A stretch of 64,000 bases of DNA from Candidatus Omnitrophota bacterium (GTDB lineage: Bacteria > Omnitrophota > Gorgyraeia > Gygaellales > Profunditerraquicolaceae), in NCBI GenBank assembly GCA_041649115.1, contig JBAZNT010000010.1, positions 3,979 through 67,978 of the forward strand, in the 5' to 3' direction. The position numbers were made by a program, and so were the translations under genes. Positions 2,683 through 46,463 of the stretch are shown piece by piece; positions within the stretch are counted from its first letter, which is position 1, and each line of letters opens with the position of its first letter. The notes beneath the pieces are model-generated. The model was not told where the DNA came from, did no database searches, and saw only the letters and a program-made list of their open reading frames with translations.

Positions 2683-3793
2683 ATGTTAGAGGCTATCGCG
2701 GAAAAACTCTCCTATATCCAGGCTCACCTTGAACAGCTTAGAGGTTATCTTTGACGTCGATAACAAAAAAAAGCTGATAGATGAGTTGTCCTCTCGGATG
2801 TCTGATCCGGGTTTCTGGAACGACACCGAGAAATCCTCCCAGACGGTAAGAAAGCTTAAAATCCTAAGATCCGCGGTAGAGCCATGGCAGGATGCTTTCC
2901 GCGAGCACCTGGAATTAAAAGAACTCGCGGAGATTACCGGAGCCAATGAGGCGGGCTTGCTGGAGGGTCTTGCCCGGGGCTGCGAAGGCCTCATTAAGAA
3001 GATAGATAAACTTGAATTCGCCAGTCTTTTAGACGGCGAGTTTGACCCTAATAACGCAATCTTAAGCATTAACGCAGGAGCCGGGGGCACCGAATCCTGC
3101 GATTGGGTAGGAATGCTTTTTCGCATGTATAACCGCTGGGCAGAGAGGCGGGGTTACAACGTCAAGGTTATTGACGTGCTTTTCGGGGAAGAAGCGGGCA
3201 TCAAGAACGCCATGCTCCTGGTGGAAGGGGAATACGCTTACGGGTATCTGAAGGCAGAGCGCGGGGTGCACCGGCTGGTGCGCATCTCTCCCTTTGACGC
3301 AAATAAGCGCCGCCATACATCTTTTGCCTCCGTAGACGTGATACCTGAGCTTGAAAATGAGGCAGAGATAGATATCAACGAAAAGGACCTTGCTATAGAA
3401 ACCTACCGTTCATCCGGACCGGGCGGCCAGCACATGCAGAAGACCGATTCGGCGGTGAGGATTACGCACCTGCCTACGGGTATCGTAGTGCAGTCGCAGA
3501 ACGAGCGCTCGCAGCATCAGAACAAGCAGAATGTCCTCAGGATCCTGAAGGCCAGGCTTTATGAACTGGAGCAGAAAAAAAAGGAGCAGGAGCTGGCAAG
3601 CCTGGGAGGGCAGAAGAAGAAGATTGAATGGGGCAGCCAGATACGCTCTTACGTGATGCACCCCTATAATATGGTAAAGGACCACCGCAGCGGATACGAA
3701 ACCGGCAACGTCGGTTCATTCATGGACGGAGAAATAGATTCCGCCATCGAGGCGTATTTAAAGACGCAGAAATTAGGAAACCGCAGGAAATAA
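2683..3793 (+). CDS. prfB: Peptide chain release factor 2, expressed through a programmed +1 frameshift (ORF0 2683-2751, then frame +1 from 2753)
   Basis: ORF0 reads [23 protein letters not shown] and ends at in-frame TGA 2752-2754 inside CTT TGA C. The downstream frame continues D-VDNKK..., giving the conserved LRGYL-D junction. The SPF (RISPFD) and GGQ (GPGGQH) motifs are present. The TTG start at 2729 in the ORF track is an artefact. Confidence 0.93.
2740..2755 (+). promoter_or_regulatory. RF2 autoregulatory +1 frameshift site (internal SD-like AGAGGT, 3-nt spacer, slippery CTT TGA C)
   Basis: The sequence AGA GGT TAT CTT TGA C parallels the E. coli prfB site AGG GGG TAT CTT TGA C. Confidence 0.9.
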
Positions 3794-3800
3794 TAAAGGC

Positions 3801-6749
3801 TTGGATATGTTGGTTTTTATCAAGAAGCAATTACTTAAGAACAAGCAGGGCACGCTGAAGAGGAAGTATCCGGGGGTCAGTATCGCGCTTCATCCCGAGA
3901 TGCCCAGCCCTTCCCTCGCCAAGATGGTAGAGCTCGCCGGGATTGTGGATAAGGTTAATAAGCTTGAGCCGGCGATACAGTCCCTTTCAGACAGCGGGAT
4001 AAAAGCCAAGACCGCCTCTTTCAGGGAAGCGATCAATGCCAAGGCCGTAGAGTATGACGCGGCTATTAAAGAGCTGGAAGAGGCGATGCTGTCGGTGGCA
4101 ATGCCGGAAGAAAAGGAGAGGCTTAAGGAGAAGCTCAGGGATACCAGGAATAAGATATTCAGCGATATCCTGCCTGAGGCATTTGCAGTTGTGAGGGAGG
4201 CCTCGCGCCGCACCATAGGCCTTAGGCATTTTGACGTGCAGATCGCGGGAGGGGTGGTTTTGCATGAAGGCAAGATTTCGGAGATGGCTACCGGGGAAGG
4301 CAAGACCCTGGTAGCAACGCTGCCGGCTTATCTGAATGCGCTCCTTGGCAGGGGGGTGCACGTGATTACGGTTAACGATTACCTGGCGCGCCGCGACCGG
4401 GAATGGATGGGGCCGGTTTATGAATTCCTGGGTTTAAGCGTCGGGGTCATCCAGCACGATATGCCGGACGAAGAGAGAAAACTCGCCTATGCCTGCGATA
4501 TTACTTACGGCACAAATAACGAGTTTGGTTTTGATTACCTGCGCGACAACATGAAATATAACGTAGGTGACCTGGTGCAGCGGCCGTTCTATTATGCCAT
4601 CGTAGATGAGGTTGACTCCATCCTGATAGACGAGGCGCGCACCCCGCTGATTATATCCGGCCCGGCTGAGGAATCTACCGAAAAGTATTATACCGCCAAG
4701 GTCATCAGCCAGCAGTTGAAAGGCCGCAGGGTAACCGAGGCCGATGAGATTGAGGCCAAGCACCGGGGTGAAAACCTCGCCGTCGGATATGACTATCTTG
4801 CCGACGAAAAGAACAATACCATTTCTTTAACCGAGGAGGGCGAGGCCAAGGCCACCAAGCTCTGGGGCGTAGAAAGCCTGCACACCATCGAGACCACGGA
4901 ATACCGCCACCATAGCATCCAGGCGCTCAGGGCAAAGGAGTTCTTCAAGCGCGACGTCCATTACGTCGTCAAGGACGGCCAGGTCATTATCGTAGATGAG
5001 TTTACCGGCAGGCTCATGCCGGGGAGGCGCTGGTCCGACGGCCTGCATCAGGCGGTAGAGGCAAAGGAAGGAATGAGGATTGAGCGGGAGAACCAGACGC
5101 TCGCCACCATTACCTTCCAGAATTATTTCCGCATGTACGAGAAGTTGGCCGGCATGACCGGTACCGCCTTTACCGAGGCCAATGAGTTCAAGTCCATTTA
5201 CAAGCTCGACGTCGTGGTTATCCCCACCAACAGGATGCTGATGCGCAGCAATTACCCTGACCGCGTTTATAAGAGCGAAAAGGAGAAGTTTGGTTTGGTG
5301 GTAGAGGAGATCTCCGAGCTTTACAAGGCCGGCAGGCCGGTTTTGGTAGGGACGATTTCGATTGATAAGTCCGAGCGGCTATCGGAGATGCTCAAGCGCC
5401 GCGGCATCTCCCATCAGGTGCTGAATGCCAAATATCACGAACAGGAGGCGCAGATTGTAGCCCAGGCCGGACGTTACCGGGCAGTGACTATCGCTACCAA
5501 TATGGCGGGGCGCGGCACAGACATACTTCTCGGAGGCAATCCCGAATATATGGCGCGCAGCTTTGCGCGGGAGAAGCTGCCTGCGGATGAGGCGAATTAT
5601 AAGGAGGAATACCTTAAGATCTTAGAGCGCTACCGTAAACAGGCCCAGGAGGAACACGATAAGGTCGTATCTTTAGGCGGGCTCCATGTCATAGGCACGG
5701 AGCGCCATGAGGCCAGGCGTATTGATAATCAGTTGCGCGGGCGCTGCGGCAGGCAGGGGGACCCCGGCTCTTCGAGATTCTATGTTTCCCTGGAAGACGA
5801 CCTCATGCGGCTGTTCGGGTCTGACCGCCTGATCGGGATTATGAACAGCCTCGGCCTGGAGGAAGGGCAGGTTATCGAGCACCCCTGGGTCACTAAGTCC
5901 ATTGAGATTGCGCAGCGCAGGGTCGAGCAGCACAATTTTGAGATACGCAAGCAGATACTGGAATATGATAACGTGATGAATAAGCAGCGTGAGGTAATCT
6001 ACGCCCAGCGCCGCGAAATACTGGAGGGTGTTTCGTTAAAGGAGTATATCCTGGAGGTTCTAAGGAAGGTGCTTGGCGAGCTGGTATCAACCTATGCCCC
6101 TGAATCCGGCGAGATAGACTCGGTGGGCCTGGAGAATATCTTAAGATTAAGGTTCGGGTTGCAGCTTGATAGCGCGCAGATCGATAATTCTGCGGGGAGG
6201 CAGATTGAGGAAGATGTTTACCAGAAGGCCTCCCTTGCTTACGATGCCAAAGAGCGCGATATCGGAAGCGATGTTATGCGCCAGTTGGAACGCATGGTTT
6301 TCCTGCAGATTATCGACAACAAATGGAAAGACCACCTTTATGCCATGGATAGCCTGCGCGAGGGTATCGGCCTGCGCGCCTATGGCCAGCGCGACCCCTT
6401 GATTGAGTATAAACGCGAGTCATTTCAGATGTTCAGCGACATGATGAGCGGCATAGAGGAAGAGGCCTTGGATATTATATTTAAGTTGCAGCCTGCCAGG
6501 CCCAGCGCTCCCCTGCGCGGCGCATTCAGTGCGGTATCCAAAGAGATGCTTCATCCCGAGGCAGAGGCATTTTCCTCTCCTGCGGCTACGGAGGATAAAC
6601 ATGTGACAGCACCCCCCTCCGTTACCCCTGTTTCGCAATCCTCCCATATTAAGGTCGGCAGGAACGATCCCTGCCCTTGTGGGAAAAAAGATCCTGTAAC
6701 TGGCAAGCCGGTTAAATATAAAAAATGTTGTTATCCAAAATATGGATAG
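3801..6749 (+). CDS. secA: Preprotein translocase ATPase SecA (alternative start ATG 3807)
   Basis: 982 aa. DEAD-like motor blocks are present ([43 protein letters not shown]). The C-terminal Zn-finger tail is CPCGKK...KKCC. Confidence 0.95.
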
Positions 6750-9875: not shown

Positions 9876-11306
9876 ATGCGCCTATTATTACCTTTTATCC
9901 TTGCCGGGCTTATTTTAACAGGCGGATGCTCGCATCTGCCAATCCAGGATTTATTTCCATTGGAGGGCGTAGATGAATTAGAGCCTATCCGCAAAAATGA
10001 ACGGATCCTGGTAATGGCTCCGCATCCGGATGATGAAGCTATTGCCTGCGCCGGGATTATCCAGAAGGCCATTGACGCCGGCGCAGAGGTCAAGGTGCTT
10101 TACCTTACTAACGGCGACCACAACCAGGTCGCTTTTATTGTTTACGAGAAGAGGTTGACTTTCAGGAAGGGCGAATTTATCCATATGGGGCAGGTGCGTC
10201 ACAGCGAGGCAGTCAAGGCAATGGAGTTTTTCGGCCTGGATGAGTCACGCTTGATTTTCCTGGGGTATCCGGACTTCGGGACATTTACAATCTTTCGTGA
10301 CTACTGGGATGCCAAGAGTCCGTACAGGAGCATGCTTACGCGTATCTCGCATGTGCCTTACCGGAGTAATCTTTCCTACGGCGCTCCCTATACCGGGGAA
10401 AGCATCCTGGGTGATATCAAGAAGGTTCTTCGGGAGTATCGCCCGGATAAGATATTCGTTTCACACCCCTCGGATACCAATCCCGACCACCGGGCATTCT
10501 ATCTTTTTTTACAGGTTGCCCTCTGGGACCTTGAAGGAGACGATATCCCTCCCAAGGTTTATCCCTATCTTGTCCATTGCCCTGGCTGGCCGCTTCCGCG
10601 GCATTACCACCCTAAGCTTCAGCTCGGGCCTCCCAGACAGTATCCGGTAGGCGCAGGGATTAAATGGCTCAGGTCGGATATGTCCTCCCAGGAGATAGAT
10701 GATAAGCATAAGGCAATCCTGTGTTATAGGAGCCAGACCCAGAGCAGCGCTTTCTACCTTTTGTCATTTGCGCGCCGGAATGAACTTTTCGGCAATTACC
10801 CGACAGTGGTCCTGGATTTAAAAAAAGACGTCTTTCCGGCCAGCAAGGAATGGGTGATGCCGGTGCTGCCTTTCTGGAAACATCCTTCCGGGGATCCTGG
10901 GCTTGATAGCCCCTATGATACGGTGGCAGAGCAGGATAACAAAACCCGGGTCAGGTATGAGTGCGACGGCGCTAATTTTTATATAAAGGTTACCAACAGC
11001 GATGCCTTGAGCAGGAAGTTTGGCACCTTGATTTACCTGTTTGGATATAGCCGCAAGGTTGAATTTGCCAAGATGCCAAAATTACGCATCGTGACTAAGG
11101 GCAGGAGATTCAAGGTGTTCGATTCACGCAAGGTTCTGAAAGCCGAAGGCATAGAATTGAGCCTGGGGGAACAGGAATTTATCTTAAAGATACCGCTTGC
11201 GGTCTTGAAGGATCCCGATGCCATCCTTACTTCGCTTAAGTCATACGGTGCGAGGCCGCGGCTGAATTCCATGGGGTTCCGTAAGGTAATCATCAAGAGG
11301 AGGTAG
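9876..11306 (+). CDS. Lipoprotein with an N-terminal PIG-L/LmbE-type deacetylase domain and a C-terminal domain of about 220 aa with unknown function
   Basis: A lipobox is present (LTGGC). The PIG-L signature is VMAPHPDDEAIACAG followed by ...NGDHN and a ...HPDH-like block (SDTNPDHRA). I recognise no motifs in the C-terminal half. Confidence 0.75.
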   Translation: MRLLLPFILAGLILTGGCSHLPIQDLFPLEGVDELEPIRKNERILVMAPHPDDEAIACAGIIQKAIDAGAEVKVLYLTNGDHNQVAFIVYEKRLTFRKGEFIHMGQVRHSEAVKAMEFFGLDESRLIFLGYPDFGTFTIFRDYWDAKSPYRSMLTRISHVPYRSNLSYGAPYTGESILGDIKKVLREYRPDKIFVSHPSDTNPDHRAFYLFLQVALWDLEGDDIPPKVYPYLVHCPGWPLPRHYHPKLQLGPPRQYPVGAGIKWLRSDMSSQEIDDKHKAILCYRSQTQSSAFYLLSFARRNELFGNYPTVVLDLKKDVFPASKEWVMPVLPFWKHPSGDPGLDSPYDTVAEQDNKTRVRYECDGANFYIKVTNSDALSRKFGTLIYLFGYSRKVEFAKMPKLRIVTKGRRFKVFDSRKVLKAEGIELSLGEQEFILKIPLAVLKDPDAILTSLKSYGARPRLNSMGFRKVIIKRR

Positions 11307-11922: not shown

Positions 11923-12834
11923 ATGGACCGTAAAAAAATACGTAAGACTTTTTCTCGCCTCGCGGCGTGGTGGGGATTGAATATCAGCTCTTTGATAGTC
12001 TCGCTGCTGCCTGAACGCTGCATCTATGGGTTTGCCGACGGGCTGTCCGGTTTGGCCTATTATTGTGCCGTAAAACAGAGGAAGATAGCCTTAAATAGTC
12101 TCAGCATCGCATTTGGCAAAGATAAGAGCCCCCGGGAGATAAGGCAGATTGCCAGGGATTGTTTTGCGCTGATGGCGAAGTCCGGAGTCGAGCTGATGTT
12201 TTTATTAAATAAACCCCGGCTTTTGCGTAAGTATTCCTTTTTCCAGGGACGCGAAAATCTTGATGCCGCCCTGGCAAAAGGCAAAGGGGTGGTTTTGGTT
12301 TCGGCGCATTTCGGAAATTTTCCTCTTCTCTTGGGCAGGTTAAGTATTGAAGGTTACGCCGCCGGGGGGATCATGAGGCCTATGCGCGACAAGACCACCG
12401 AGGATTATTTTTTGAAGACCCGTCAGCGCTACGGCGTCAAGACCATTTACAGCCAGCCGCGCAAGGCCTGCGTTGAAGAGACCATCAGGTCGCTGCGCAG
12501 CAACGAGTTGATATTTATACCGATAGACCAGAATTTCGGCACCGGGGGAGTATTTGTGAATTTCTTCGGCGTCAAGGCCGCTACCGCTACGGGGCCGGTA
12601 GTTTTTGCCCAGCGTACCGGCGCAGCGTTGATTCCCTGTTTTATAGTGCGCCAGCCGGATAACAGGAATAAGATTATTTTTGAGCCAGAAATGGAATTGC
12701 AACACGGCGCTACCGCCCAGGAGACGGTCGCCGTCAATATCCAGCGGCTTACCGACATCATAGAGTCGTACATCCGCAGATACCCTGCTGAATGGGGATG
12801 GATACACCGCCGCTGGAAGAGCCGCCCGGCCTAA
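11923..12834 (+). CDS. Lipid A biosynthesis (Kdo)2-lipid IVA acyltransferase family protein (LpxL/HtrB-like)
   Basis: 303 aa with an N-terminal TM anchor. The acyltransferase H-x4-(D/E)-like block is SAHFGNFPLL. The C-terminal YPAEWGWIHRRWK motif is typical of the LpxL/LpxM family. Confidence 0.8.
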   Translation: MDRKKIRKTFSRLAAWWGLNISSLIVSLLPERCIYGFADGLSGLAYYCAVKQRKIALNSLSIAFGKDKSPREIRQIARDCFALMAKSGVELMFLLNKPRLLRKYSFFQGRENLDAALAKGKGVVLVSAHFGNFPLLLGRLSIEGYAAGGIMRPMRDKTTEDYFLKTRQRYGVKTIYSQPRKACVEETIRSLRSNELIFIPIDQNFGTGGVFVNFFGVKAATATGPVVFAQRTGAALIPCFIVRQPDNRNKIIFEPEMELQHGATAQETVAVNIQRLTDIIESYIRRYPAEWGWIHRRWKSRPA

Positions 12835-41376: not shown

Positions 41377-42222
41377 ATGAAAAGGAATATAAAATTTCAA
41401 GGCAATCCCCTGACCCTGGTAGGCAGGGCCATTGGAGTCGGCAGGTCAGCGGCAGATTTCAGGGTAGTCTCGCAGGAATTAAAAGAGCTTGGCCTCGGAG
41501 ACTTTCGCGGTAAGACTAAAGTAATTACCACCTTTCCTTCCCTGGATACGCCGGTCTGCGACCTGCAGGTGAGGGAATTCAATAAAAGGGCGGTCGGGTT
41601 TTCTTCTGACGTGGCAGTCATAGGCATAAGCAAGGATCTCCCCTTTGCCCAGAAGAGGTTCTGTCAGGACCACGGGGTCAAGAATGCCGTAATTGTTTCG
41701 GATTACAGGTATTCCTCCTTTGGCATCAATTACGGCCTTTTGATTAAAGAGCTTAATCTCCTGGCGCGCGCCGTAATCATTGTTGACAAAAGCGACCTGA
41801 TAAGATATATCCAGATAGTAGAGGAGCTGACTATCCCCCCGGACTATGAGGCAGCGTTGAAAGCCCTGGAAGATTCAGCGCAGGCCGACGCAGCCGGCAA
41901 CAGAGAGCCTCTTTTGCGCTGCAGGCCATGCGAAGGCGGGGTTGCGGCATTGTCCAAAGGAAAGGTTGAGAGACTCCTGGCCGAGCGCCGGGGGTGGATA
42001 TTGGTTGAAGACAAAAAATTAGTCAAGGAATTAAAATTCGGGGATTTTATAGAAGCCAAGTATTTCCTGGATATTGTCAGCGCCATTGCCGAGGAGCAGG
42101 GGCATCACCCTATTCTTACCATCAGTTATAATAAGTTAAAGATAGCCCTTACTACCCATGCTGCCGGAGGCTTGACTGATAATGATTTTATCATGGCCGG
42201 TATCATTGATGAACTTGAATAA
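41377..42222 (+). CDS. Fusion protein: atypical 2-Cys thiol peroxidase (Tpx) plus a pterin-4a-carbinolamine dehydratase (PCD/DCoH)-like domain
   Basis: Residues 1-165 are Tpx-like (FPSLDTPVCDLQ peroxidatic Cys, RFCQD resolving Cys). Residues 185-281 are PCD-like (CRPCEGG, GW, EEQGHHP, TTHAAGGLTDNDF). Confidence 0.8.
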   Translation: MKRNIKFQGNPLTLVGRAIGVGRSAADFRVVSQELKELGLGDFRGKTKVITTFPSLDTPVCDLQVREFNKRAVGFSSDVAVIGISKDLPFAQKRFCQDHGVKNAVIVSDYRYSSFGINYGLLIKELNLLARAVIIVDKSDLIRYIQIVEELTIPPDYEAALKALEDSAQADAAGNREPLLRCRPCEGGVAALSKGKVERLLAERRGWILVEDKKLVKELKFGDFIEAKYFLDIVSAIAEEQGHHPILTISYNKLKIALTTHAAGGLTDNDFIMAGIIDELE

Positions 42223-42242: not shown

Positions 42243-43433
42243 ATGGCTGTTGAGATAAAGAAGGATATCTACTGGGTAGGAGCGGTGGACTATAATGCCA
42301 GGAGCTTCCATGGCCATACCTATAATACCTCCAGGGGGACTACCTATAATTCTTACCTTATAAAAGACGAGAAGGTCGCGCTGGTGGATACCGTTTACGA
42401 CCCCTTCGCTTGCGAGATGATTGCCAGGGTCAAGGAGATTGTTGAGCCGCGAGAAATAGATTATATCATCGCCAATCACGTGGAAACCGACCACTCCGGG
42501 GCGCTCCCTGATATTATGCGCCTGTGCCCTAAGGCAAAGGTTCTGGGAACAGCCAAATGCAGGGAGGGGTTATGGAAGCATTATTACGGCAGCTGGGACT
42601 TCCAGACCTTAAAGACCGGGGATAAGATTAATCTCGGCAGAAGAGCGCTTTCTTTTATCGAGGCCCCGATGATACATTGGCCGGACAGCATGTTTACCTA
42701 TTGCCCTGAGGAAGAATTACTTATGCCTAATGACGCCTTCGGGCAGCATTACGCTACTTCCAAGAGGTTTGACGACGAGGTAAACCAGGCGGAGCTTATG
42801 GATGAGGCTGCCAAATATTACGCTAATATACTCTGGCCGCTGGGAAGCGTGATCCTCAGGAAAATAGAAGAGGTGCAGAAAACAGGAATCTCCATAAAGA
42901 CAATTGCGCCCAGCCACGGGGTTATCTGGCGCCGCGATCCCGCAAGGATTATCAACGCTTATATGTCTTGGGCGAAGAGCGAGTTGCGCCCCAAGGTAGT
43001 AATAGTCTATGAGACGATGTGGGGAGCGACGGATAGGATGGCGAGGAACATTGCCGAGGGGATTATTGCCTCGGGGATAGAGGTTAAATTATTCGACGTC
43101 ACGGCATCCGACCGCACTGAGGTAATCAAGGAGATGCTTGATGCCGGGGGGTATCTGGTCGGCTCTTCTACCCACGATAACGGCATGCTGCCGGCGATTG
43201 CCGGATTCCTGCAGTTTTTTAAAGGCCTGAAGCCCCGGGGAAGGATTGCAGCGGCATTCGGATCCTTTGGTTGGGCCGGGGGTGCCTTAAAAGAGATTGA
43301 AGAAGAGTTAAGACAGGCGGGGGTAGAGGTAAAACAGGAGGGGCTGGGTGTCAAATACGTGCCGGATACCCCGGAATTAAAGAAGTGTTACGATTTCGGC
43401 AAGGAGTTCGCCCGTAGCCTTAAAACATCCTAA
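42243..43433 (+). CDS. Flavodiiron protein (rubredoxin:oxygen/NO oxidoreductase, FprA/ROO type)
   Basis: The metallo-beta-lactamase-like domain carries HVETDHSGA (HxExDH). A C-terminal flavodoxin domain is present (VVIVYETMWGATDRMA). Confidence 0.92.
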   Translation: MAVEIKKDIYWVGAVDYNARSFHGHTYNTSRGTTYNSYLIKDEKVALVDTVYDPFACEMIARVKEIVEPREIDYIIANHVETDHSGALPDIMRLCPKAKVLGTAKCREGLWKHYYGSWDFQTLKTGDKINLGRRALSFIEAPMIHWPDSMFTYCPEEELLMPNDAFGQHYATSKRFDDEVNQAELMDEAAKYYANILWPLGSVILRKIEEVQKTGISIKTIAPSHGVIWRRDPARIINAYMSWAKSELRPKVVIVYETMWGATDRMARNIAEGIIASGIEVKLFDVTASDRTEVIKEMLDAGGYLVGSSTHDNGMLPAIAGFLQFFKGLKPRGRIAAAFGSFGWAGGALKEIEEELRQAGVEVKQEGLGVKYVPDTPELKKCYDFGKEFARSLKTS

Positions 43434-43434
43434 G

Positions 43435-43653
43435 GCGCCCGGTGCCAAAAGGCACCTGGCGCTAAGCAGTACCCAACGCTAAACGATATACCCGACCTAA
43501 GCGGATAGGTCGGTATCCGCCTGGTAATTAACACCTGGCGCTAAGCGGAATTGCGTTGGTGTCCTGTTTAATGATTAACACCCGGCGCTAAGTGGTATTG
43601 CGTTGGTGTGCAGTTAACATTATTACACCCAATCCTAAAGGATGGATTGGTGT
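43435..43653 (+). repeat. Phased array of structured hairpin units (H0 43435-43462; H1 43488-43516; H2 43531-43562; H3 43578-43609; H4 43625-43653)
   Basis: H1-H4 share one architecture: 5 bp, a 1-nt pyrimidine bulge, 5 bp, and an 8-11-nt loop. The units carry compensatory base changes. G-U pairs are allowed only in + strand RNA. See the findings for detail. Confidence 0.7.
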
Positions 43654-43679
43654 TCTCTTTCTAGAGAAGGAGGTGGGGG

Positions 43680-43745
43680 ATGGCTTGTGGATGCGGATGC
43701 CGTAAGGCGAAGAAAGCGAAGAAGAAGACCAAGAAGAAAAAGTAG
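43680..43745 (+). CDS. 21-aa Cys/Lys-rich micro-protein (MACGCGCRKAKKAKKKTKKKK)
   Basis: A near-perfect SD (AAGGAGGT, 43667-43674) lies 5-6 nt upstream of ATG 43680. The stop is TAG 43743-43745. It is not in the ORF track because it is too short. Confidence 0.45.
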   Translation: MACGCGCRKAKKAKKKTKKKK

Positions 43746-43755
43746 TTTTGAATAC

Positions 43756-43781
43756 GGCGCGGCAGGTGATTTTGCCGCGCC
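43756..43781 (+). other. Perfect 9-bp GC-rich hairpin (intercistronic stabiliser or weak terminator)
   Basis: GGCGCGGCA (43756-43764) pairs with TGCCGCGCC (43773-43781) around an 8-nt loop. Only a poor U-tract follows (GCGCTATTTAT). Confidence 0.5.
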
Positions 43782-43808
43782 GCGCTATTTATAGGAAGGG
43801 GGTTTAAG

Positions 43809-43967
43809 ATGACAAAATACCGTTGCACAGTCTGTGGTTATATCTATGACCCGCAGACAGGAGATCCCGAGCATGACATAAAACCAGGCACTGCATTCGA
43901 GGACCTGCCTGATACCTGGGTTTGCCCGGAATGCGGCGTAGGCAAGGATATGTTCGAGAAAATATGA
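43809..43967 (+). CDS. Rubredoxin
   Basis: 52 aa: [52 protein letters not shown]. It has the two CxxCG knuckles and the conserved YxYDP, FEDLP and W residues. It is not in the ORF track because it is shorter than 60 aa. Confidence 0.93.
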
Positions 43968-44434
43968 TAACGATTCCGCGCGAGGTCGTGCATTTTTTCG
44001 GAGAGCAGGGGTGCGTTATCCTTACTTCTATTGACGAAAAAGGCAGGCCGCATAGCTCCTGTAAAGGGATAGTCAAGATAGACCCGGCAGGGATGTTTTA
44101 TCTTCTGGACCTCTACCGCGCCGCAACCTATAGCAATATCAACAAGGACGCCAAGGTCAGCATTACCGCTTTCAATGAGCATGCCTTTAAAGGGTATTGC
44201 CTTAAGGGAAAGGCAAAGGCCGTGGCAGCAGGGAAGATAGAAGGAAGTATCCTCAGGGCATGGGAGAATAGGATTGCATCCAGGATTACGCAGCGGGTAG
44301 TCCGTGATATCAAAGAAGAGAAAATCCAGCCCAGGCACCCGGAGGTTTCCTTGCCAAAACCGGCTTATATGATTGCAATCACGGTCGAAGAAATAGTCGA
44401 CCTTACCCCGCGGCACCTAAGAGGAGGGGAATGA
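43964..44434 (+). CDS. Pyridoxamine 5'-phosphate oxidase-like FMN-binding protein
   Basis: ATG 43964 overlaps the rubredoxin stop (ATGA). The product is a 156-aa split-barrel-like protein ([18 protein letters not shown]). The upstream extension in the track lies inside the rubredoxin gene. Confidence 0.6.
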
Positions 44435-46241: not shown

Positions 46242-46463
46242 ATGAGAGAGAAAGTGGAAGAGGTAATCAAAAGAATCCGCCCGATGCTGGCTGCTGATGG
46301 CGGAGACCTGGAGTTGATAGATGTCAGCGAGGACGGGATAGTAAAGGTGAAGCTCACCGGCAGCTGCGGATGCTGTCCGATGAGCCAGATGACGCTGAAG
46401 ATGGGCATTGAGCGCATGCTCAAGGAGGCCTTGCCTGAAGTCAAGCAGGTCGTGGCCGTATAA
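46242..46463 (+). CDS. NifU C-terminal-domain (Nfu-type) Fe-S cluster carrier
   Basis: 73 aa. Blocks are IRPMLAADGGDLELIDV and CGCCPMSQMTL (a CxxC variant). Confidence 0.85.
   Translation: MREKVEEVIKRIRPMLAADGGDLELIDVSEDGIVKVKLTGSCGCCPMSQMTLKMGIERMLKEALPEVKQVVAV

Follow-up and report, generated by a model that had tools for sequence, protein, structure and literature searches.

Between the genes for a flavodiiron protein (FDP) and a rubredoxin, a stretch of 64,000 nucleotides (nt) from Candidatus Omnitrophota (contig JBAZNT010000010.1, positions 3,979 to 67,978; here called the window) carries a phased array of four bulged hairpins, H1 to H4, and the question that this locus raises is whether the array regulates its redox neighbors or belongs to something more widespread. 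An initial annotation, made from the sequence alone, had proposed a dedicated RNA element, with a CsrA/RsmA-titrating RNA or CsrA-controlled leader, a platform for another RNA-binding protein, a set of RNase-processing or stability elements within a roo-rub transcript, and a lineage-specific element resembling repetitive extragenic palindromes (REPs) or bacterial interspersed mosaic elements (BIMEs) as candidate identities. Here, we report that the array (43435 to 43653) is made up of a unit of ca. 45 nt in five copies, four intact and one decayed, and that this unit is dispersed through many genomes of the Omnitrophota, uncultivated bacteria of the Planctomycetes-Verrucomicrobia-Chlamydiae (PVC) group. 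This unit is probably a proliferating element, similar to REPs or to miniature inverted-repeat transposable elements (MITEs), that persists as a structural module of the mRNA beside the ribosome-binding site.

RESULTS

The array in the window

When the span from 43200 to 44000 was inspected base by base, all four hairpins were found at exactly the positions and with exactly the sequences given in the initial annotation, and the plan that it described (a foot and an inner stem of 5 bp each, separated by a bulged pyrimidine, and a loop of 8 or 11 nt) was correct, the loops being purine containing. The start-to-start distances of 43, 47, and 47 nt were confirmed, as was the presence of GGA in three of the four loops (H1, H2, and H4; it is missing in H3); the linkers are 14, 15, and 15 nt long and contain TAAT or TTAA. 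The fold check that had been suggested was run, and H1 to H4 were all present in the minimum-free-energy fold of positions 43425 to 43810 (z = -5.2); folded alone, each adopted the same structure, at -11.2 to -12.9 kcal/mol. The foot is ACACC/GGTGT in H2 to H4 and ATACC/GGTAT in H1 (AUACC/GGUAU in the RNA, with the loop AAGCGGAU), H2 and H3 are 81% identical across 47 nt, and the inner stem of H4, AAUCC/GGAUU, is common to units in another locus, L014. The pattern ACACC-N18-26-GGTGT occurs three times in the window, against an expected 0.11, and none of 100 shuffled sequences reached three. Outside the array, neither a pattern search nor a covariance model run without filters detected a further copy in the window.

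Three components had been overlooked: a degenerate fifth unit (H0), a small second hairpin directly after H4 (43654 to 43667), and an open reading frame (ORF) of 21 codons, hereafter the tiny ORF, that lies just 3' of the array. H0 retains the 5' foot, the inner arm, and the start of the loop (CACCTGGCGCTAAGCAGTA, at 43453 to 43471) and has lost its 3' arm; it matches ACACCYGGCGCTAAG with one mismatch. A strong hairpin at 43435 to 43462 is formed by an inverted partial copy of the unit 5' arm, paired with the 5' arm of this remnant, and it was not called a terminator because no T-run follows it. The stop codon of the FDP gene lies just 5' of the whole cluster.

The suggestion that the array might be a CsrB-like sponge found no support. 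There is no promoter-like site in 43300 to 43680 and no terminator either after the array or between the FDP gene and the tiny ORF; instead, the array runs straight into the tiny ORF's Shine-Dalgarno (SD) sequence. All three frames across 43434 to 43683 contain stop codons. In the minimum-free-energy fold of H4 with its tail (43625 to 43683), the canonical 5-bp small hairpin is replaced by an 8-bp helix between UCUCUUUC (43654 to 43661) and GAAGGAGG (43666 to 43673) that sequesters the SD sequence, and this register might modulate the tiny ORF. The pyrimidine tract that it needs is absent from most members of the family described below.

A family of repeats in the Omnitrophota

The DNA searched amounted to 1.68 Mb, mostly from Omnitrophota: 909 kb comprising the window and loci seeded by the FDP gene and 769 kb of metagenome loci (L081 to L200) seeded by a strict 32-nt long-loop pattern, ACACCYNNNNNTAANNGGWATTNNNNNGGTRT, with 200 loci in all besides the window. 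An initial scan of the FDP-seeded loci revealed the hairpin, with differing inner stems, in several species, and a covariance model, R1, was built from 15 hairpins out of these loci (alignment A1). R1 gave ca. 24 good matches in 12 of the 81 sources that make up the 909 kb and 206 matches (175 + 31) in the metagenome loci, for a total of ca. 230. The matches in the metagenome loci often fall at several separate intergenic sites on one contig, and extragenic copies may lie close together, such as the three separate sites within 9 kb of L164. Beyond the seeded arrays, 21 extra arrays were present in 769 kb, or ca. 1 per 35 kb, a density that describes the metagenome loci.

Metagenome contigs with a match to the strict pattern numbered at least 120; among 2.9 million viral contigs there was none, a negative result that doubles as a control for chance. 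The metagenome loci are nearly nonredundant (113 clusters among 120 loci), and those that overlap FDP-seeded loci resemble Omnitrophota sequence. Looser scanners based on regular expressions and structure were noisy, giving 51 and 129 matches on reversed-sequence controls, and were replaced by the covariance-model matches.

The initial annotation knew of no RNA family with this architecture, and, in agreement, nothing in the window matched Rfam at gathering score. With the limit relaxed to E = 10, only noise was returned for 43300 to 44000 (sucC at 19 bits, against a threshold of 50). Full-text searches of Omnitrophota-related literature turned up no description of such an element, which is also missing from Rfam, and the family is apparently undescribed.

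A two-hairpin unit with covarying helices

The anatomy of the full unit was derived from an alignment (A3) of 78 distinct modules, each consisting of a main hairpin, a small hairpin, and an SD sequence. The main hairpin is followed directly by the small hairpin, A-AGGAG(G), a spacer of 6 to 9 nt, and the start codon. The main hairpin has the ACACC/GGUGU foot, one bulged C, a covarying 5-bp inner stem that is mostly NNCGC, and a conserved loop, UAAnnGGAAUU or the 8-nt form UAnnGGAU. The small hairpin has a 5-bp stem that is free in sequence but self-complementary (UGUGU/ACACA, UGUCU/AGACA, UAUCU/AGAUA, UGCCU/AGGCA, GCCC/GGGC, and others) and a loop of 4 to 6 nt. The idea that small hairpins are homogenized within a genome was rejected, as copies within one contig differ.

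The proposal that structure, rather than inner-stem sequence, is maintained was borne out across the family: 95.3% of the cells in A3 are paired, and double changes occur at 10 of the 15 pairs. None of 500 shuffles reached the observed covariation, no slid register came near it, and both helices covary. Because the inner stem is N in the seed pattern, and the small hairpin is in neither the pattern nor the model, the pairing of these two stems is independent evidence. Even the "bulge" position covaries: in seven copies, C...G is replaced by U...A, with one C of a CC(C) run left unpaired. The foot and the bulged C are near invariant, whereas the inner stems are variable, and GG is kept in ca. 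85% of the loops in which the search pattern did not force it.

It had been argued from the two G-U pairs in each of H2 and H3 that plus-strand RNA is the functional form. For these two hairpins the argument stands, in that their minus-strand folds lack the two pairs and reach only -7.4 and -7.9 kcal/mol; across the family, however, G.U and A.C occupy 36 and 26 cells, respectively, with no signature of the RNA strand, and as a strand test this asymmetry was uninformative. That the plus (sense) strand is the relevant one is nevertheless supported, by gene orientation.

Placement at Shine-Dalgarno sites

Of 218 matches, 138 are followed on their own strand by an SD sequence and a start codon no more than 70 nt away. 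The distances form a sharp peak, in which 85 matches have the start codon 21 to 25 nt past the end of the main-hairpin match, and secondary peaks one unit further out represent the penultimate units of arrays; the opposite-strand control was flat, with 28 matches. This direct test for an SD sequence and start codon replaced longest-ORF calling, which over-called (91% of the sequence fell in ORFs, with spurious antisense ones such as that at ca. 2714 to 3244 of L035). Counted as arrays, 105 of 158 are in the sense orientation with a start codon within 30 nt, and the remaining arrays comprise 13 that are antisense beside a start, 6 that are cut by contig ends, and 34 "other," many of which were sense on inspection (nested outer copies or unusual starts). 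Arrays of opposite orientation lie within 6 kb of one another on single contigs (L021 and L035); orientation therefore follows transcription, not replication.

The junction with the SD sequence is precise: GGAG begins exactly 1 nt past the small hairpin in 63 of the 78 modules. In the metagenome set, 61 of 70 genes with a module have AAGGAG no more than 24 nt from the start, compared with 43 of 451 other genes of at least 150 amino acids (aa) on the same contigs (Fisher p = 3e-41), a difference that includes some ascertainment, considered below. Internal and nested units end at the small hairpin; the SD sequence is thus outside the duplicated unit, and the unit therefore sits at strong SD sites rather than carrying one inside. 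In many cases the unit begins directly after, or within, the stop codon of the upstream gene, and the module then fills the whole intercistronic gap. At three clear sigma-70-type promoters (L021 at 1878, L039, and L052), the hairpin starts 5 to 12 nt past the -10 box, at the 5' end of the transcript.

Strong SD sequences appear to be the exception in these genomes. By a rough, ORF-based estimate, AAGGAG precedes ca. 10% of the genes without a module (metagenome loci, 43 of 451; window, 5 of 52), and any SD match of at least 5 nt precedes about one-third of them.

Three thiamine leaders (L017 at 12419 to 12611, L014 at 10864 to 11134, and L104 at 2837 to 3025) combine a thiamine pyrophosphate (TPP) riboswitch (RF00059, 54.6 to 63.5 bits) with antisense units and are a recurrent exception to the sense rule. 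The antisense units flank the TPP aptamer in L014, and in L017 the antisense unit lies between the aptamer/terminator and the start of an apparent thi4-type gene.

Multiplication, nesting, and turnover

Units multiply in place. Identical 47-nt tandem units are found in L110 (884 to 1015) and L195 (1550 to 1683), and units occur inside the loops of other units, two to three levels deep (L110, 600 to 1000; L143, 1 to 330; L035, 7914 to 7996; L021, 7549 to 7632; L014, 10864 to 10941). What is inserted is, in every case, a single main hairpin together with a single small hairpin. At the site where L035 has a nested copy, its close relative L054 has only a 3' half-unit. No target-site duplication was consistent among the units: the three nucleotides on their 5' side read AAG in only 17 of 78 modules and vary in the others, where they are often the upstream stop codon.

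The locus in the window is itself a case of such turnover. The initial annotation had named beforehand the absence of the structure from orthologous roo-rub loci as an observation that would count against a dedicated element. Among 22 loci with the tiny ORF, units precede it in only three: the window, with four plus the remnant; L142, with two; and L021, with one. The junction between the FDP gene and the tiny ORF is empty in L001, L112, L049, and others, and in L001, the closest relative, only 9 nt separate the FDP stop codon from the SD sequence. Orthologous genes in different species may nevertheless retain the module, with compensatory changes in both helices, as found for greA, lemA, SDR, nifU, and grx genes and, by reading of the sequences, a radical-SAM-like gene; the proteins encoded by these module-retaining orthologues are only 64 to 78% identical. 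Because units come and go at orthologous sites yet persist at some orthologues, the sites can be long-lived as well as variable.

A search of the 1.68 Mb for IS200/IS608 TnpA proteins detected an ORF for a tyrosine transposase similar to REP-associated tyrosine transposases (RAYTs) in L101 (3792 to 4466; NF047646, 75.4 bits with a cutoff of 80; PF01797, E = 4e-15). This gene (within 3640 to 4500) is flanked by a different repeat, AATAGGGGACAGCGCCCTATT, that is unrelated to the ACACC units; two copies of the flanking repeat AATAGGGGACAGCGCCCTATTTTTCCC lie upstream and one inverted partial copy lies downstream.

Genes downstream of the unit

In the pattern-seeded set, a Pfam scan of the downstream genes showed that 72 proteins match 85 families, none of them more than twice. 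Assigned by reading of the sequences, these genes include those for ribosomal proteins, greA, atpD, smc, carB, and an aspartate kinase gene, as well as aroC, yebC, lemA, cysK, a NiFe hydrogenase gene, and transporter genes. The FDP-seeded matches do precede redox genes (rubredoxin, grx-trxB, nifU, SOR-like, and Rrf2 regulator genes and the tiny ORF), but those loci were chosen by the FDP gene, which accounts for such neighbors. An element dedicated to the roo-rub junction, as first proposed, is at odds with the occurrence of the same unit in front of unrelated genes, and a role for the array as a specific sensor or regulator of the roo-rub genes is not supported.

DISCUSSION

In this study, we have shown that a hairpin array that had looked like a local regulatory RNA consists of copies of a repeat family that combines the behavior of mobile DNA (tandem growth, self-nesting, and gain and loss) with placement as precise as that of a translation signal (the units are mostly sense oriented, stop 1 nt short of a canonical SD sequence, and have covarying helices). 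Among short dispersed palindromic repeats, the family is unusual in its two-hairpin unit, its sense orientation, its nucleotide-precise placement at strong SD sites, and its self-nesting. The explanation that we consider probable is that the unit proliferates in the manner of a REP or MITE and is kept next to the ribosome-binding site as a structural part of the mRNA. It is envisioned that the unit spreads as DNA, with its insertion into loops hinting at a single-strand-specific enzyme, and that copies would survive wherever they do no harm to the mRNA or benefit it. A stable structured block with its end at the SD sequence may shield the latter from upstream sequence and could stack coaxially on the SD/anti-SD helix; the downstream cistron would also gain a protective hairpin at its 5' end, and the upstream cistron one at its 3' end. 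The array in the window would be transcribed with the flavodiiron gene and would deliver the SD sequence of the 21-codon Cys/Lys-rich ORF.

Several points weigh against this explanation. We infer every one of the RNA-level effects of the module, and the family lacks an excess of G.U over A.C cells that would mark the RNA strand. Approximately 15% of the arrays are antisense to the adjacent gene, the three TPP-riboswitch leaders among them. The enrichment of AAGGAG includes some ascertainment, since an SD-like 4-mer was required to call a module; the gene calls are ORF based; and the metagenome set was seeded with a long-loop GGW consensus. The window carries a single array in 64 kb. Finally, a plain stabilizing hairpin does not need a conserved foot, bulge, and loop, and these features point to a recognizing factor, either a mobilizing enzyme or an RNA-binding protein.

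The module has partial counterparts among known systems. 5'-Terminal stabilizer hairpins and the intercistronic elements of chloroplasts (PPR10-type sites and intercistronic expression elements) can stabilize both flanking RNA segments and keep the ribosome-binding site open. Like them, the module is a structured or protected block just 5' of a ribosome-binding site, whether between cistrons or at the start of a transcript; unlike them, it belongs to a self-propagating family rather than being an individual site-specific element or protein site, and its corresponding effect is putative. Mycobacterial interspersed repetitive units (MIRUs) insert at translation starts and spare downstream expression (review, PMC12548453). 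As with MIRUs, the units described here are tandem, gene oriented, and apparently mobile in intercistronic spacers, with a period of 43 to 47 nt compared with units of ca. 45 to 50 nt. However, MIRUs act via translational coupling of the gene to a small ORF within the repeat, whereas these units have stops in three frames, are hairpins, lie 5' of the SD sequence rather than at the start codon, and come from another phylum. The conserved ACA just 5' of the SD sequence recalls the ACA translation-enhancing motifs of enterobacteria (PMC3879156).

A bolder version of the proposal, which we regard as rather unlikely, is that of a self-propagating "portable ribosome-binding-site cassette." Here, a mobile two-hairpin unit would install itself at a canonical AAGGAG and travel with it, in genomes where only ca. 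10% of other genes show that SD sequence. A dedicated factor, which might be the ribosome, a regulator of translation, or a mobilizing enzyme of a new kind, would recognize the invariant foot, the bulged C, and the loop GGA. If this were true, the spread of the unit would rewire the translation of dozens of genes per genome.

A second alternative, an unlikely one, is that a global RNA-binding protein, CsrA-like or other, has its operator in the conserved foot, bulge, and loop; it would bind the GGA of the loop together with the GGA of the SD sequence ca. 30 nt downstream and control the translation of the many genes with a module, the array in the window being a multisite version of the operator. 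This reading is kept as a live rival mainly because stability alone does not explain why the loop and bulge are conserved. The retention of GG in most unforced loops, the near-invariant foot and bulged C beside variable inner stems, the sense orientation at a fixed distance from the SD sequence, and the persistence of the module at orthologous genes across species all fit an operator, as does the geometry of two GGA motifs, which suits a CsrA dimer bridging two sites, as in the hag and glgC leaders. Repeated hairpins with loop GGA and a second GGA in the SD sequence are indeed what the array shares with CsrA/RsmA leaders and sponges. However, copies 5' of unrelated genes are near identical over ca. 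55 nt, nest, and amplify in tandem, unlike independently evolved protein sites; GGA is not invariant, being missing from H3 and several other family members; most relatives lack the element at the orthologous site; and antisense copies exist. In contrast to CsrB and RsmZ, moreover, the array is not a stand-alone small RNA gene, and no match to the Rfam families CsrB, CsrC, or RsmX/Y/Z was found in the window. A tblastn search with three CsrA/RsmE sequences detected no csrA in the window and the 200 loci, which represent less than one genome equivalent (1.68 Mb; ca. 0.7 matches expected).

It is quite unlikely, in our judgment, that the units are purely selfish DNA, that is, hairpins like those of REPs or MITEs that owe their movement to a transposase or nuclease acting on single-strand DNA and have no RNA role, proximity to SD sequences reflecting only insertion preference and the scarcity of neutral space in compact operons. 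The resemblance to REPs is nevertheless close, and of the identities listed in the initial annotation, the lineage-specific REP/BIME-like element came nearest. The units are imperfect palindromes of 29 to 32 nt, with 10 pairs plus a bulge and -11 to -13 kcal/mol; they are extragenic, dispersed, and also clustered, lie mostly between codirectional genes, are probably transcribed, and form subfamilies with alternative complementary stem bases, as described for REPs. Self-nesting in single-stranded loops, tandem arrays, remnants, presence or absence at orthologous sites, a RAYT-like gene on one element-bearing contig, and the lack of G.U over A.C asymmetry all agree with a selfish origin. Known REP families comprise 20 to 100 units per genome and are stem-loop repeats with a GTAG or CGTC tag (Di Nocera et al. 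2013, PMC3733652); few of their dimers are head to tail, and BIMEs alternate in orientation (PMC3733652). It is in the REP tag and the BIME orientation that the comparison fails: the foot here is ACACC/GGTGT, GTAG and CGTC occur in only 22 and 2 of 78 small hairpins, respectively, the 3-nt 5' flanks vary, and the arrays in the window, L110, L195, L035, and L054 are head to tail. The second hairpin, the exact and fixed position at the SD sequence, and the sense orientation of ca. 85% of the arrays also set the unit apart from classical REPs, and the sole RAYT-like gene in the 1.68 Mb is flanked by another repeat. Against the absence of any RNA role stand the sense bias, which replication direction does not explain, the SD junction that is exact to 1 nt, the strong enrichment of canonical AAGGAG, and the retention of modules at diverged orthologues.

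That the array is a specific cis regulator of an oxygen-stress operon (similar to an iron-responsive element [IRE] or a riboswitch, or a set of sites at which RNase processing would divide the roo-rub transcript according to iron or redox state) is very improbable and has been largely refuted, since the surrounding oxidative-stress cluster, the IRE-like plan of a lower stem, single 5'-side bulged C, 5-bp upper stem, and loop, and the redox genes behind several FDP-seeded matches are outweighed by the origin of that association in the FDP seeding, the unrelated genes of the unbiased set, the lack of the element in front of the tiny ORF at 19 of 22 loci, that of the closest relative among them, a unit number of 0, 1, 2, or 4 among close relatives, and loops of 8 or 11 nt (AAGCGGAU, UAAGCGGAAUU, UAAGUGGUAUU, and UAAAGGAU), none of which matches the CAGUGN hexaloop.

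Two further candidates were rejected. A CRISPR array is incompatible with linkers of only 14 to 15 nt that, in relatives, are themselves conserved small hairpins. A DNA operator for PerR, Fur, or Rrf2 was considered for the AT-rich linkers and the foot palindrome; recognition of duplex DNA leaves the variable but self-complementary stems, the intercistronic sites, and the sense bias unexplained, and the AT-rich linkers are not conserved.

The array in the window should accordingly be annotated neither as a regulator of the flavodiiron and rubredoxin genes nor as a CsrA sponge. If the RNA-level role of the proliferating module is real, the family would offer a natural modular insulator or enhancer of ribosome-binding sites and a handle on translation initiation in Omnitrophota; if the units are purely selfish, they would be a clean case of a mobile element in the one neutral slot of compact operons. 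Metagenomic strain typing can also make practical use of the elements as markers.

Neighboring genes and the tiny ORF

The features of the array and its flanks are listed in Table 1. By Pfam, the surroundings form a cluster of oxygen- and iron-stress genes that encode an NAD-binding oxidoreductase, a VIT1 family protein, a thiol peroxidase (Tpx)-pterin-4a-carbinolamine dehydratase (PCD) fusion, the FDP, rubredoxin, a PNPOx-like protein, a rubrerythrin-like protein, a glutaredoxin, a pyridine nucleotide-disulfide oxidoreductase (thioredoxin-reductase-like), and an HcyBio protein; the ORF at 46242 to 46463 looks NifU-like by eye. The 80 best relatives of the FDP among contigs from one genome per species come nearly all from Candidatus Omnitrophota metagenome-assembled genomes (MAGs) or from third-party annotation (TPA) assemblies labeled Planctomycetes, with one Firestonebacteria MAG and one unclassified source among them; the best match, in L001, is 79% identical.

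TABLE 1 Features of the hairpin array and its flanks in the 64-kb window
Feature	Position	Strand	Properties
FDP gene, upstream neighbor	42243..43433	+	ORF; Pfam ODP/Lactamase_B + Flavodoxin_1
Strong hairpin GCGCC-C-GGUGCC-AAAA-GGCACC-U-GGCGC	43435..43462	+	-22.2 kcal/mol, z = -4.9; inverted repeat I4
H0, degenerate fifth unit, GCACC-T-GGCGC-TAAGCAG...	43452..43487	+	Direct-repeat family D3; 84-89% identical to matching part of H2/H3
H1, short-loop type, ATACC-C-GACCT-AAGCGGAT-AGGTC-GGTAT	43488..43516	+	-12.9 kcal/mol; covariance-model match, 37 bits, E = 1e-7
H2, long-loop type, loop UAAGCGGAAUU	43531..43562	+	-11.2 kcal/mol; covariance-model match, 42.5 bits
H3, long-loop type, loop UAAGUGGUAUU, tandem duplicate of H2	43578..43609	+	Covariance-model match, 44.8 bits
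H4, short-loop type, loop UAAAGGAU, inner stem AAUCC/GGAUU	43625..43653	+	-11.9 kcal/mol; covariance-model match, 41.4 bits
Small second hairpin, UCUCU-UUCU-AGAGA, second half of canonical unit	43654..43667	+	Helix 2 of the family alignment
SD sequence, AAGGAGGUG (AAGGAGG at 43667-43673)	43667..43675	+	Begins on last base of small hairpin
Tiny ORF, 21 codons, MACGCGCRKAKKAKKKTKKKK	43680..43745	+	Gene served by the module in the window; homologous 16- to 26-aa ORFs in 21 other loci
GC-rich hairpin then T-containing tail, CGCTATTTAT	43755..43782	+	12 pairs; terminator-like, outside the repeat, 3' of tiny ORF
Rubredoxin gene, downstream neighbor	43809..43967	+	PF00301, E = 8e-26

The loci that carry the tiny ORF are the window, L001 (7213), L021 (7256), L047 (3193), L049 (7225), L112 (482), L142 (6664), and 15 others, and in these the ORF often lies directly 3' of the flavodiiron gene. 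Its consensus, over 16 to 26 codons, is M-[GSA]-C-G-x-C-[GCS]-x followed by a Lys/Arg-rich tail; its SD sequence is GGAGGTG or a close variant (AAGGAGG or GGGGGG), and in most loci a hairpin lies 3' of the ORF. The tiny ORF matched no Pfam or NCBIfam family. From its sequence and surroundings, it looks like an unannotated gene for a Cys-motif/polylysine peptide that would be tied to oxygen-stress clusters.

Several minor observations were also made. In the window, a single ORF at 41377 to 42222 (plus strand) joins a thiol peroxidase (Redoxin/AhpC-TSA, residues 21 to 161) to a pterin-4a-carbinolamine dehydratase (residues 191 to 280), an unusual fusion in the stress cluster, and the linker between H2 and H3 contains a perfect 5-1-5 palindrome, TTAATGATTAA (43568 to 43578), that is AT-rich like Fur/PerR-type boxes, in a family whose linkers are not conserved. 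In L052 (7312 to 7485), a 57-aa Cys-rich protein with a Lys-rich tail is encoded behind a consensus promoter and one unit. In L021 (1830 to 1940), the gene for an Rrf2-type regulator has a unit at the start of its transcript, and a palindrome between the -35 and -10 boxes, AATGATAC-N7-GTATCATT, is likely an autoregulatory operator.

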